Positions 22,180 to 39,634 of a stretch of DNA of 64,000 nt are shown piece by piece. The first letter of the stretch is position 1, and each line of letters begins with the position of its first letter. The notes beneath the pieces were generated by a model. The model did no database searches. It was not told the origin of the DNA and was given only the letters and a program-made list of their open reading frames with translations. Source of the DNA: an uncultured Gammaproteobacteria bacterium (GTDB taxonomy: Bacteria > Patescibacteriota > Patescibacteriia > Magasanikbacterales > GWA2-37-8); NCBI GenBank assembly GCA_964536725.1, contig CAZHYJ010000002.1, forward strand, positions 27,219 through 91,218. Reading direction: 5' to 3'. A program made the position numbers and the translations under genes.

Positions 22180-22512
22180 ATGTTAGCAATACAAATTATT
22201 TTATTAGTTTTTTTCTTGTTTGCCTGGAGTCGAGTATTAAAGAATTATCGTTTAGGTGAGATTAAGTTAAAAGAATTAATTATCTGGTCAGTGTTTTGGT
22301 TGGTTGCAGGTGTGGTGGTGATAGTGCCAAATTCTACCAACACCATCGCGAAATTCGTCGGCATCGGTCGCGGAGCCGATTTAGTTGTTTATGCGTCTTT
22401 GGCTTTGATATTTTACATCCTCTTTCGTATTTTTTATCGTTTAGAAGCTATTGAAAAGAATATTACAAAAATTACACGTGAAATTGCACTGAAAGATAAT
22501 AAAAAAGAATAA
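22180..22512 (+). CDS. DUF2304 small membrane protein, a common GT2 partner.
   Basis: Three-TM 110-aa protein directly downstream of a GT2, matching the recurrent GT2-DUF2304 pairing. Confidence 0.55.
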   Translation: MLAIQIILLVFFLFAWSRVLKNYRLGEIKLKELIIWSVFWLVAGVVVIVPNSTNTIAKFVGIGRGADLVVYASLALIFYILFRIFYRLEAIEKNITKITREIALKDNKKE

Positions 22513-22517
22513 AGAAG

Positions 22518-22617
22518 AATTTACAGTTCGAATATTTTTTGAGCGGGTTATGCGCCAAAGCGCATCCTTTTGCCCTCGCGGGCAAAAAAAGCGAAAAAAT
22601 TATTCGAACTGCAAATT
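22518..22617 (+). repeat. Structured repeat, copy B. Conserved core TTTTTTGAGCGGGTTATG...CATCC...AAAGCGAAAAAAT enclosed by a copy-specific 17-bp stem.
   Basis: Direct alignment to copies A and C. See findings. Confidence 0.7.
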
Positions 22618-22633
22618 CTGATAACTATTAGTT

Positions 22634-29347: not shown

Positions 29348-29795
29348 AAAGTGATTTTAAAGTTGTCTTGCTAAAATCCCAGTAAGAATCGGCGAGGAAA
29401 AGAGTGAAGATGATAAAGAAAGCACGGATGCTCCAGAAGTCGCGGGCGGCGACGGGGGTGGAATAGGTGAGGATCAGCGAAATTCCTAGTGCGATCCAAT
29501 AGATCATTGTTTTAGTAGTAGCTTTTCGACGGCTGGATAGTTCGATGCGACTACGCAAGTGAGAAAGATAAAAGAAATATATTGCCATTAAAGGTAGTGA
29601 TACTAGCCATTCAAAATTGTGTGGGTCAGCGCCAAGATACTCGAGGCCGTAAAAATATGACCAGATGATTAGAATAAAGGCAAAAAAGAGAAAGATAATA
29701 TCCAATTGATATTGGCGCAATATTTTCATACGCAAATTATTGAAACGCTGGCGCAACCGAGAAGAACAGCATTGCCAAGATGCCCAAGATAGCAA
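29334..29795 (-). CDS. Hypothetical four-TM membrane protein. Its stop overlaps the recJ start.
   Basis: Hydrophobic ORF co-oriented with recJ. Confidence 0.4.
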   Translation of the reverse strand: MLSWASWQCCSSRLRQRFNNLRMKILRQYQLDIIFLFFAFILIIWSYFYGLEYLGADPHNFEWLVSLPLMAIYFFYLSHLRSRIELSSRRKATTKTMIYWIALGISLILTYSTPVAARDFWSIRAFFIIFTLFLADSYWDFSKTTLKSLFGKK

Positions 29796-29857
29796 CGACT
29801 GCCCACAATGATTTTAATGTTTTTCTTTTCATGTACTTTTTAATTAAGTTAATATTA

Positions 29858-29962
29858 GGATTTGGGTGTCAAATATTTTTTGAGCGGGTTATGAAGCCCG
29901 CGGCTTCATCCCTGAGGCCTCGCGGCCGAGGAAAGCGAAAAAATTATTTGACACCCAAATCC
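29858..29962 (+). repeat. Structured repeat, copy A. 18-bp outer stem GGATTTGGGTGTCAAATA / TATTTGACACCCAAATCC around the conserved core.
   Basis: Direct alignment with copies B and C. Confidence 0.7.
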
Positions 29963-34074: not shown

Positions 34075-34158
34075 AAAAATGTTTGATTTAATTATAGCAA
34101 ATAGAACTAAAGTTGTATAGGTGATTTTTATCTGATATACTGTTGATAAAGAGGTGCA

Positions 34159-34275
34159 GATTTTGGTTTTTAGGTTTTGGTAATTTTTTCGCTTTCCTCG
34201 GCTGCGAAGCCTCAGGGATGAGGCCTTGGCCTCATAGCCCGCTCAAAAAATACCAAAACCTAAAAACCAAAATCC
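34159..34275 (-). repeat. Structured repeat, copy C, inverted orientation. Outer stem of 24 bp or more (GATTTTGGTTTTTAGGTTTTGGTA).
   Basis: The reverse complement aligns to copies A and B. Confidence 0.7.
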
Positions 34276-38940: not shown

Positions 38941-38997
38941 TTAGTAGTTGTTGTGTATTTTGACTTTTTGTTGTATATTATTAAAGTAATTAGACAT

Positions 38998-39294
38998 ATG
39001 TCCACAGCAGAACTATTAAAAAAGATACAACCCACACTTACCGCCGGCAACGTCCAATTTGCCGCCCTTTTTGGCTCTCGTGCCAAGGGTTCTTTGCGTA
39101 CCAACAGTGACTACGATTTTTTAGTTCGGTTTGCACCGTCTTTTAAGTATACTGTTTTTGATTTATTGGATCTACGCGACAATTTAAGTCGTAATTTAAA
39201 AAAACCAGTCGACGTTATCACCGTTAATGGACTAAATCCTAAAATGAAATCTGAGGTTTACAAAACAATGAAAGTTGTATATGGAAACAGGTAA
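38998..39294 (+). CDS. Minimal nucleotidyltransferase (MntA-type antitoxin).
   Basis: GSRAKGSLRTNSDYDFLV = GSxxxG...SDxD nucleotidyltransferase signature. Confidence 0.7.
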   Translation: MSTAELLKKIQPTLTAGNVQFAALFGSRAKGSLRTNSDYDFLVRFAPSFKYTVFDLLDLRDNLSRNLKKPVDVITVNGLNPKMKSEVYKTMKVVYGNR

Positions 39295-39634
39295 GCGTGA
39301 TTATTTATATTTATCACATATTTTAGACGCCATCGGTGATGTGAATAAATTTTTGCGTGGAATTGAATATGCGGATTTTGCTCACAGTGATCTTTTACAA
39401 AGTGCAGTGATGCGTAAACTTGAGATTATGGGCGAGGCTACCAAGCGATTGAGCTTAGATTTTCGCAAAACACATGCAGATATCCCTTGGAAGAAAATTG
39501 CCGGCATGCGCGACGTCCTAATTCATGATTATTTCGGTGTGGATGCAAAAGCGGTTTGGAATACTGTAAAGGAGGATTTGTCGGATTTAAAGAAGAAAAT
39601 TACGTTGATTACCAAAATGAATCCAATTATTTAA
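39281..39634 (+). CDS. HepT-like HEPN-domain toxin (DUF86).
   Basis: Rx4HxY motif (MRDVLIHDY). The 14-nt overlap with the upstream MNT gene is the typical MntA-HepT operon layout. Confidence 0.7.
   Translation: METGKRDYLYLSHILDAIGDVNKFLRGIEYADFAHSDLLQSAVMRKLEIMGEATKRLSLDFRKTHADIPWKKIAGMRDVLIHDYFGVDAKAVWNTVKEDLSDLKKKITLITKMNPII

Follow-up and report, generated by a model that had tools for sequence, protein, structure and literature searches.

ERIC/IRU, the pneumococcal BOX, RUP and SPRITE repeats and the Correia (NEMIS) repeats of Neisseria are small interspersed palindromic repeats of bacteria, with conserved termini and a variable or modular interior. The spread of ERIC, BOX and Correia is either unexplained or takes place in trans, and in ERIC compensatory changes have been interpreted as a sign that the fold is selected. 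Here, we describe an element present in three copies in a 64-kb stretch of Patescibacteria DNA (contig CAZHYJ010000002.1, positions 27,219–91,218; the whole stretch analysed is hereafter called the window). Compared with ERIC, BOX and Correia by description, not by sequence, it is similarly ~100–150 bp long, non-coding, intergenic, found in either orientation, polymorphic in its presence and a source of long hairpins in transcripts. Unlike them, it is most variable at its termini, has a conserved three-way junction as its interior and resides in Patescibacteria; no sequence relationship is evident, and neither a TA nor any other target duplication was seen at the element. In behaviour it is ERIC-, BOX-, Correia- or REPIN-like, and it is a member of no family tested.

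Other mobile or palindromic systems offer partial parallels. The REP/REPIN–RAYT systems (Y1/HUH) are likewise non-autonomous, replicate as a whole hairpin, involve a folded single strand and leave no target-site duplication; the present element differs in that its alignment shows no GTAG-type tetranucleotide at the hairpin foot, its loop is a structured 57-nt junction instead of a variable spacer and it has no GC-skew bias. No RAYT gene was found in the 64-kb window, and no Y1 transposase recurs near 36 loci carrying the element. Miniatures derived from IS200/IS605 (PATEs) share the lack of terminal duplication, the single-strand hairpins and the strand asymmetry. The ends of IS200/IS605 elements are not mutual inverted repeats, and insertion occurs 3' of a fixed tetra- or pentanucleotide paired to a guide at the hairpin foot; our element, in contrast, has no flank motif, no stem–flank complementarity and no lagging-strand bias. 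Integron attC sites resemble it in folded single-strand recognition, variable complementary arms and a strand-marking extrahelical base. They carry conserved boxes (RYYYAAC...GTTRRRY) at the outer ends around a variable centre and lie in cassette arrays, whereas here the order is reversed (GTYTGRT...AYCARAC beside the core), copies are solitary and no integrase is near. By its length of 100–120 bp, lack of coding content, multiple copies (~47 recovered) and insertion polymorphism, the element is also like a miniature inverted-repeat transposable element (MITE), although it matches no known insertion sequence (IS) or MITE end by sequence. Assignment as a classical MITE was rejected, there being no conserved terminal repeats and no fixed-length target-site duplication. 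A full-length IS with the element's ends was sought in the 64-kb window and among the genome-scan matches, and none was found there. Lastly, in the TIGR stem-loop arrays of Candidate Phyla Radiation (CPR) bacteria and phages, 'variable but consistently palindromic' stems surround conserved motifs, tandem G.A (box C/D) elements among them (Faure et al. 2025, PMC12045711). The element shares with them a Patescibacteria host and palindromic variable stems around conserved motifs; it was rejected as a TIGR array unit on account of its solitary copies, the lack of a Tas-like neighbour and of a RUGAUGA box, and a CUGA that about half of the copies lack and that Watson–Crick pairs can replace.

The element is a previously undescribed, ~105-base non-coding element of CPR/Patescibacteria, unusual for its conserved structured interior and hypervariable termini; full-text literature searches on CPR repeats and MITEs and on the core sequence turned up no account of it. 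With somewhat more confidence than doubt, we read it as a non-autonomous, insertion-polymorphic interspersed hairpin element of 100–120 bp, belonging to one Patescibacteria lineage, whose single-stranded fold (RNA or single-stranded DNA) is under selection. The strand reading GAGCGGGUUAUG forms a long outer helix, P1, that closes a three-way junction. P1 consists of 8–24 bp that are mostly copy-specific, followed by a conserved proximal segment (TYTGRTA/TAYCARA), a one-base bulge and a U6/A6 helix. The junction strands (GAGCGGGUU, CC and AAAGCG) are near-invariant; covariation is seen in both short hairpins, P2 and P3. P3 is built of C-G, Y-G, tandem G.A/A.G and then 4 bp; in the five or six type B copies, copy 1 of the window among them, the tandem G.A is exchanged for Watson–Crick U-A/Y-R pairs. 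P2 continues past a UU bulge as GG(G)/CC(U), and the GC of GAGC pairs with the GC of AAAGCG, so that the core forms a compact three-way junction. The three window copies are made up as follows.

22516–22619, + strand: copy 1, type B core; whole hairpin in the spacer between a DUF2304 gene (22180–22512) and a GT4 glycosyltransferase gene (start ~22640); 120 bits in the covariance model
22516–22534, + strand: copy 1, P1 5' arm AGAATTTACAGTTCGAATA; partner 22601–22619, with one A.C mismatch
22535–22600, + strand: copy 1, conserved core
22535–22549, + strand: copy 1, T6 (22535–22540), then GAGCGGGTT (22541–22549)
22550–22565, + strand: copy 1, P2 ATGCGC-CAAA-GCGCAT, followed by CC
22568–22587, + strand: copy 1, P3 TTTTGCCC-TCGC-GGGCAAAA
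22588–22600, + strand: copy 1, AAAGCG (22588–22593), A6 (22594–22599) and bulged T (22600)
22601–22619, + strand: copy 1, P1 3' arm TATTCGAACTGCAAATTCT
29858–29962, + strand: copy 2, type A core; whole element in antisense orientation, flanked by the lepA stop (29972) and by the start (29832) of a conserved 31-aa open reading frame; 133 bits in the covariance model
29858–29875, + strand: copy 2, P1 5' arm GGATTTGGGTGTCAAATA; perfect complement of 29945–29962
29876–29944, + strand: copy 2, core, beginning with T6, then GAGCGGGTT (29882–29890)
29891–29909, + strand: copy 2, P2 ATGAAGCC-CGC-GGCTTCAT, followed by CC
29912–29931, + strand: copy 2, P3 CTGAGGCC-TCGC-GGCCGAGG with tandem G.A
29932–29944, + strand: copy 2, AAAGCG (29932–29937), A6 (29938–29943) and bulged T (29944)
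29945–29962, + strand: copy 2, P1 3' arm TATTTGACACCCAAATCC
34158–34275, - strand: copy 3, type A core; whole element, separating the divergent 219-aa gene (start 34074, - strand) and beta-CASP nuclease gene (start 34302, + strand); 129 bits in the covariance model
34251–34275, - strand: copy 3, P1 5' arm GGATTTTGGTTTTTAGGTTTTGGTA
34183–34250, - strand: copy 3, core, with T6 (34250–34245), then GAGCGGGCT
Within the copy 3 core, - strand: P2 ATGAGGCC-AA-GGCCTCAT, CC, P3 CTGAGGCT-TCGC-AGCCGAGG and AAAGCG
34189–34183, - strand: copy 3, A6 (34189–34184) and bulged T (34183)
34158–34182, - strand: copy 3, P1 3' arm TACCAAAACCTAAAAACCAAAATC(T), the last base in a G.U pair

A sequence-only reading had placed three copies at these positions, each a shared core between copy-specific inverted repeats, after lepA, in a glycosylation operon and in a divergent promoter region; all of this agrees with our analysis. 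It was also right that the outer stems are complementary, but copy 1 has a 19-bp stem with one A.C mismatch and not one of 11 bp. The outer stem of copy 3 spans 25–26 bp including the terminal G.U at 34158. The unpaired base next to the T6/A6 helix is real, although what had been described as a bulged A is, on the strand as written, a T (U) of the 3' side and becomes an A when the complement is read; 32 of 41 copies have it. The two inner hairpins exist as proposed, and both are longer than described. An 18-mer of the core, TTTTTTGAGCGGGYTATG, has three occurrences in the window, where shuffles predict 0.21, and the covariance model found no fourth copy over the whole 64 kb. Copies 1–3 fold at -40.7, -56.0 and -59.0 kcal/mol (z = -5.9 to -8.4 against dinucleotide shuffles); their complementary strands fold about equally well, as near-palindromes should.

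Further copies were sought in genomes and metagenomes. The 18-mer matched 36 stretches among 185,579 species genomes, and the full element was present solely in three Patescibacteria metagenome-assembled genomes (MAGs), namely H43-bin188_1, SRP062349_co6_369 (labelled 'Gammaproteobacteria', its link to Patescibacteria being indirect) and one Paceibacterota MAG; the remaining genome matches were isolated coincidences in unrelated phyla. In metagenomes, a two-block pattern gave 42 loci, of which 38 were genuine. After the genome and metagenome scans, 41 distinct full-length copies entered the alignment, and the covariance model R1 was then searched against the flanks of the found loci and the window. 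R1 added diverged copies (L063:6352-6485, L018:3588-3721 and L002:3483-3597; L numbers denote loci or contigs) and a decayed copy at 43 bits (L005:2032-2157). Altogether, pattern scans and covariance model recovered ~45 copies beyond those of the window; each is on a Patescibacteria MAG or a metagenome contig, and copies of one sample may belong to several genomes that are related. With 41% GC and housekeeping genes, the window is typical of Patescibacteria, and the nearest named homologues of its LepA belong to Magasanikbacteria/Patescibacteria.

Two other palindromes came to light. About 10 nt from the copy L074:9050-9184, the hairpin L074:9191-9322 (+) differs in its core (GAAACGAGTACGC...CAGTGAG), has T5/A4 and an outer stem of 22 bp without mismatch, and scores only 36 bits with R1; it may represent a sister family of the same architecture. 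At L042:1290-1420, a site orthologous to that of the L016 copy, there is a different palindrome, TGTCATCTTGAGCGAAGCGAAAGATCC ... TCGCTCAGAATGACA, with a GCGAAGC mini-hairpin motif, of which no second copy was found in the loci or the window.

Covariation across the family is extensive. Of the cells in the model-based alignment (42 copies), 90% are paired, against 70% in shuffled alignments and 36–47% when partners are slid, and double changes occur in 31 of 44 pairs; none of 500 shuffles matched the observed value on any pairing or covariation measure. The MAFFT alignment gave similar figures (88% paired against 70% shuffled and 36–48% slid, with two-sided changes in 29 of 44 pairs), and RNAalifold, given no structure, arrived at the same architecture with 25 of its 38 pairs compensated. 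Diverged copies show compensation in the U6/A6 helix as well (UUUUCC/GGAAAU and UUUUCUU/AAGAAA). The Watson–Crick replacement in type B copies and an additional hairpin between P2 and P3 in L004 and L020 indicate that helices are kept and sequences are not. Covarying stems around fixed junction strands therefore argue for selection on the fold, as had been deduced from three copies and now holds on 41–42 independent ones; the covariance-model search thus returned both further copies and further covariation.

Pairing asymmetries identify the folded strand. Within stems assessed copy by copy, G.U outnumbers A.C by 11:2 in P1 and 13:2 in P3, and the U6/A6 helix has nine U.G cells; a cruder count gives 47:32, over all columns and with the unpaired flanks of short-stem copies included. 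The excess of G.U over A.C, with the one-sided bulge, points to the strand reading GAGCGGGUUAUG as the one that folds, while G.U/G.T tolerance alone does not discriminate between RNA and single-stranded DNA. The same data bear on an improbable alternative, in which the element is a duplex-DNA or cruciform site for a dimeric DNA-binding protein (a nucleoid, partition, replication or recombination factor) and the arms stay inverted repeats since both must fit the same protein. Conservation of the P1-proximal TYTGRTA and T6 sequence despite base pairing would suit such a site, as would random orientation and the copy in the rpmH–dnaA spacer of L018. A protein reading the arms separately would not, however, enforce complementarity at freely varying P1 positions, which do stay complementary; moreover, P2 and P3 covary, the G.U versus A.C asymmetry marks one strand and the core is asymmetric.

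Several more specific readings of the core were tried and rejected. A pseudoknot of the L3 loop (UCGC with junction GCGA) is not borne out, the loop variants UUGGC, CUGGC and UCAC being uncompensated. A small open reading frame starting at the conserved core ATG is precluded by the length of hairpin 1, which varies (18, 20 or 21 nt from ATG to CC) so that no reading frame is kept and the element is non-coding, as had been proposed. A hammerhead or box C/D reading of CUGA...GA fails because the motif order is wrong, CUGA is missing in about half of the copies and the G.A is replaceable. Rfam 15 gave no match at gathering threshold over the whole window, consistent with the earlier failure to recognise the motif as any named RNA family. 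At E<=10, copies 1–3 and the four-way variant gave generic long-hairpin (miRNA-precursor) matches only, on both strands and at 10–36 bits against cut-offs of 39–144, and no self-cleaving ribozyme class of Rfam matched these copies, the four-way variant or the window.

Genomic context revealed no preferred setting. Relative to the upstream and downstream genes, the element is opposite to both in 14 cases, same/opposite in 8, same as both in 7 and opposite/same in 5; that is, 14 antisense and 7 sense placements between co-directional genes, with 8 convergent and 5 divergent spacers. Orientation with respect to genes is random. With respect to local GC skew, the top strand is the G-rich strand in 19 copies and the C-rich strand in 17, giving no replication-strand bias. 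Skew is positive throughout the window (0.02–0.27), including the - strand gene block at 27.5–34 kb, so the whole window lies on one replichore; within it, copy 3 is oriented opposite to copies 1 and 2. The neighbours of 36 loci have no recurring protein family. Copies are intergenic, often directly after stop codons, and occur inside conserved operons and divergent promoter spacers: in L018:3588-4053 two copies of the same orientation flank rpmH (in the rnpA–rpmH spacer and in the rpmH–dnaA spacer, the presumed origin region), and in L002 copies flank a tsaC-like gene beside prfB. The element is not a conserved cis-regulatory RNA, because its orientation is random, no gene, promoter or terminator recurs with it and its sites are empty in relatives; a riboswitch or regulatory leader was likewise rejected, given the random orientation and the absence of a recurring gene family.

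Intergenic placement directly after stop codons, together with hairpins that are very stable on both strands, might suggest elaborate bidirectional terminators or mRNA-stabilising hairpins, a reading that we consider very unlikely. No U-tract follows the hairpin on either strand, flanks beyond P1 are free of T-runs, and sigma-70 and terminator scans found no promoter- or terminator-like site inside the copies, nor a conserved promoter upstream. In addition, some copies lie in divergent promoter spacers or inside operons, the asymmetric conserved junction would not be needed for termination and relatives do without the elements. An intrinsic terminator in the strict sense was rejected, no copy having a GC hairpin with a U-tract; the window's ordinary terminators are short A-run/GC-stem/T-run hairpins. 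The TGRTATTTT at the P1/T6 boundary was considered as an extended -10 and not adopted, since the start would fall inside the core and omit the 5' arm.

The principal alternative, possible yet unlikely in our judgement, is a multi-copy structured non-coding RNA with a cellular role, be it part of a ribonucleoprotein, an RNA that cleaves itself or binds a ligand, or a processing or 'punctuation' signal. P1 would then be a processing stalk cut by RNase III, and dispersal a by-product of duplication. The strongly covarying helices would be expected of such an RNA, the tolerance of G.U and not of A.C and the conserved U.G and tandem G.A in P3 are typical RNA behaviour, and some copies sit inside conserved operons such as rnpA–rpmH. 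On the other hand, the folded strand cannot be transcribed from neighbouring genes in 21 of the 39 copies with assignable neighbours, there is no conserved promoter upstream or inside, none of the copies has a counterpart at the orthologous site in relatives, degenerate copies exist and the tandem G.A is replaceable by Watson–Crick pairs.

Empty sites in relatives, whose contigs were collected via LepA and the glycosyltransferase, bear on the interspersed hairpin element that we favour. The copy 2 site is empty in relatives with LepA proteins 98% (L082), 93% (L079) and 88% (L080 and L081) identical, in which the conserved 31-codon open reading frame begins 4–18 nt after the lepA stop; the window is ~120 nt longer there, the whole hairpin being included in the extra sequence. 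At the copy 3 site, L079 and L080 lack the element and conserve the adjacent TGcTATAAT promoter. The copy 1 site is empty in L088, L089 and L090, where the glycosyltransferase (75–77% identical) follows the DUF2304 gene after 5–14 nt. At none of the three empty loci was there a palindrome or anything like either arm; an apparent similarity of the copy 3 arm to L079 was dismissed as really a different, orthologous A-rich segment. As the flanking DNA of the empty-site relatives is 12–25% divergent, the timing of these differences is loose. L043 and L053 have only a 114-nt hairpin in common (94.7% identity) amid unrelated flanks, and therefore the whole hairpin, outer stem included, is the duplicated unit. 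The contrast that the sequence-only reading had drawn between a structured RNA and a transposon is not supported: with its empty sites, duplicated whole hairpin, random orientation and degenerate copies, the element behaves like a dispersed, insertion-polymorphic repeat. Logan short-read contigs carrying the window's exact LepA or glycosyltransferase (L084–L087 and L091–L094) start or stop inside the cores of copies 1–3, as a dispersed repeat would lead one to expect. In the genome record of L016, a run of N at L016:1024-1033, 20 nt upstream of the element, is consistent with a scaffolding gap at a repeat.

The open reading frame that adjoins lepA, MKRKTLKSLWAVVAILGILAMLFFSVAPAFQ, occupies window positions 29737–29832 (-) directly downstream of that gene and is conserved, though uncalled, in L082, L079 and L080; it is probably a small membrane protein.

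The same sites speak against a reading in which only the core is mobile, inserting into the tip of an existing palindrome or terminator hairpin, or copying its target into an inverted duplication, with the outer stems as host sequence. Identical cores with unrelated outer stems, and elements that abut stop codons, where terminators would lie, are what such a process might leave. This reading can hardly be correct: it is contradicted at all three window sites, where no palindrome or arm homology exists when the site is empty, the window holds no unoccupied palindromes of this type, L043 and L053 share their outer stem despite unrelated flanks, and arms across the family share the consensus ARRWTTTDNRNGTYTGRTA.

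Several observations weigh against the interspersed, mobile hairpin that we prefer. Precise loss of an unstable palindrome in relatives would equally yield 'empty' sites, and gain and loss are not formally separable. Neither a target-site duplication nor a flank motif was found among 39 copies and the three empty-site junctions, the flanks being AT-rich only, and no mobilising enzyme or autonomous partner is encoded among the proteins of the 64-kb window; we infer mobility from presence or absence and from the duplicated unit only. Classical MITEs have conserved termini, whereas the termini of this element are its most variable part. Junction strands that hardly vary, together with an additional hairpin that is tolerated (L004 and L020), resemble a functional RNA, and the invariance of the core blocks was partly imposed by the search patterns. 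Finally, 13 copy pairs have cores with 0–2 differences in 55–57 nt and arms that are 35–85% different beyond the proximal 8 bp and still complementary. Such identical cores with divergent stems are not explained by simple copy-and-paste.

The outer stem is nonetheless not arbitrary in composition. Outward from the T-run, the 5' arm reads A-T-R-G-T-Y-T-G, four highly variable positions and T-T-T-W-R-R-A, and 5' arms are G-rich (172 G against 66 C). Between L063 and L075 a mid-stem block is exchanged with compensation (CCAT/ATGG against GGAG/CTCC), the core and proximal stem being otherwise unchanged, and L044 and L059 differ by a compensated mid-stem block (CAC against TGG). The distal-stem variants GGATTTA and AGAAWTTA occur with both core types, A and B, in all four combinations. 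This pattern could arise from gene conversion between cores via the invariant blocks, from faster, near-neutral compensatory turnover in a long mismatch-tolerant helix than in intolerant helices of 5–8 bp, or from one arm being corrected or rebuilt within the hairpin on the template of the other. An IS608-like role of the variable block as a guide to the flank was rejected, with 12 stem–flank matches against 18.5 expected. So was the origin of arms as copies of other loci or of phage 'protospacers', the arms having no other match in the window and a viral collection no match to the core. The sole viral match, of a 20-mer from the copy 3 arm (L095:6307-6326), is T/G-rich, of low complexity and without an inverted partner, and is read as chance.

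A bolder proposal, which we regard as quite unlikely, is that the element represents a new class of structure-dependent mobile nucleic acid, in which the three-way-junction core acts as recognition or catalytic module, copying proceeds via a single-stranded intermediate and the outer stem is rebuilt at each copying. Rebuilding of the stem, for example by fold-back self-templating or hairpin-directed correction, would account for identical cores with divergent complementary stems and for the exchanged blocks of L063/L075 and L044/L059. In a variant of this proposal, the hypervariable mid-stem block would determine the specificity of a multi-copy RNA.

Whole hairpin units come and go in short intergenic spacers, in either orientation and without carrying a gene. 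For the non-autonomous interspersed hairpin, the mechanism that we infer involves mobilisation in trans through a single-stranded intermediate. A trans-acting enzyme that copies or inserts the element would recognise its folded single strand, as read-through RNA or as single-stranded DNA, and would require P1 to be paired but not to have a particular sequence. Consequences for the host would be incidental, in that a 24–30-bp duplex would be added to operon transcripts as a likely RNase III substrate.

About 70 open reading frames of the window encode housekeeping functions, and neither a transposase nor an integrase or reverse transcriptase is among them. At 38953–39634 (+), a nucleotidyltransferase (Polbeta/NTP_transf_2) and a HepT-like RNase form an MNT/HepT toxin–antitoxin module, and an ABC ATPase gene lies at 39.9–40.5 kb. 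Elsewhere, a 244-aa open reading frame at L063:776-1510 with an N-terminal MerR/excisionase-type helix-turn-helix (INEAAKLLNVSIDTLRRWDKNGKL), and its homologue in L074, lie close to elements on two contigs from one sample; no catalytic domain is recognisable in it by eye.

Patescibacteria have tiny, gene-dense genomes that are usually held to be repeat-poor. At about one copy per 20 kb in the window, the element implies that selfish or semi-selfish DNA persists in these organisms, and it has a practical cost in that it fragments CPR assemblies and bins, as seen from short-read contigs that stop inside the cores. The element offers a lead to whichever enzyme mobilises it, and model R1 could be used for annotation. 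The ~45 copies form a natural data set in which the fold of one strand is kept while stem sequence turns over very fast, a useful case for separating RNA-level selection from the dynamics of DNA palindromes.

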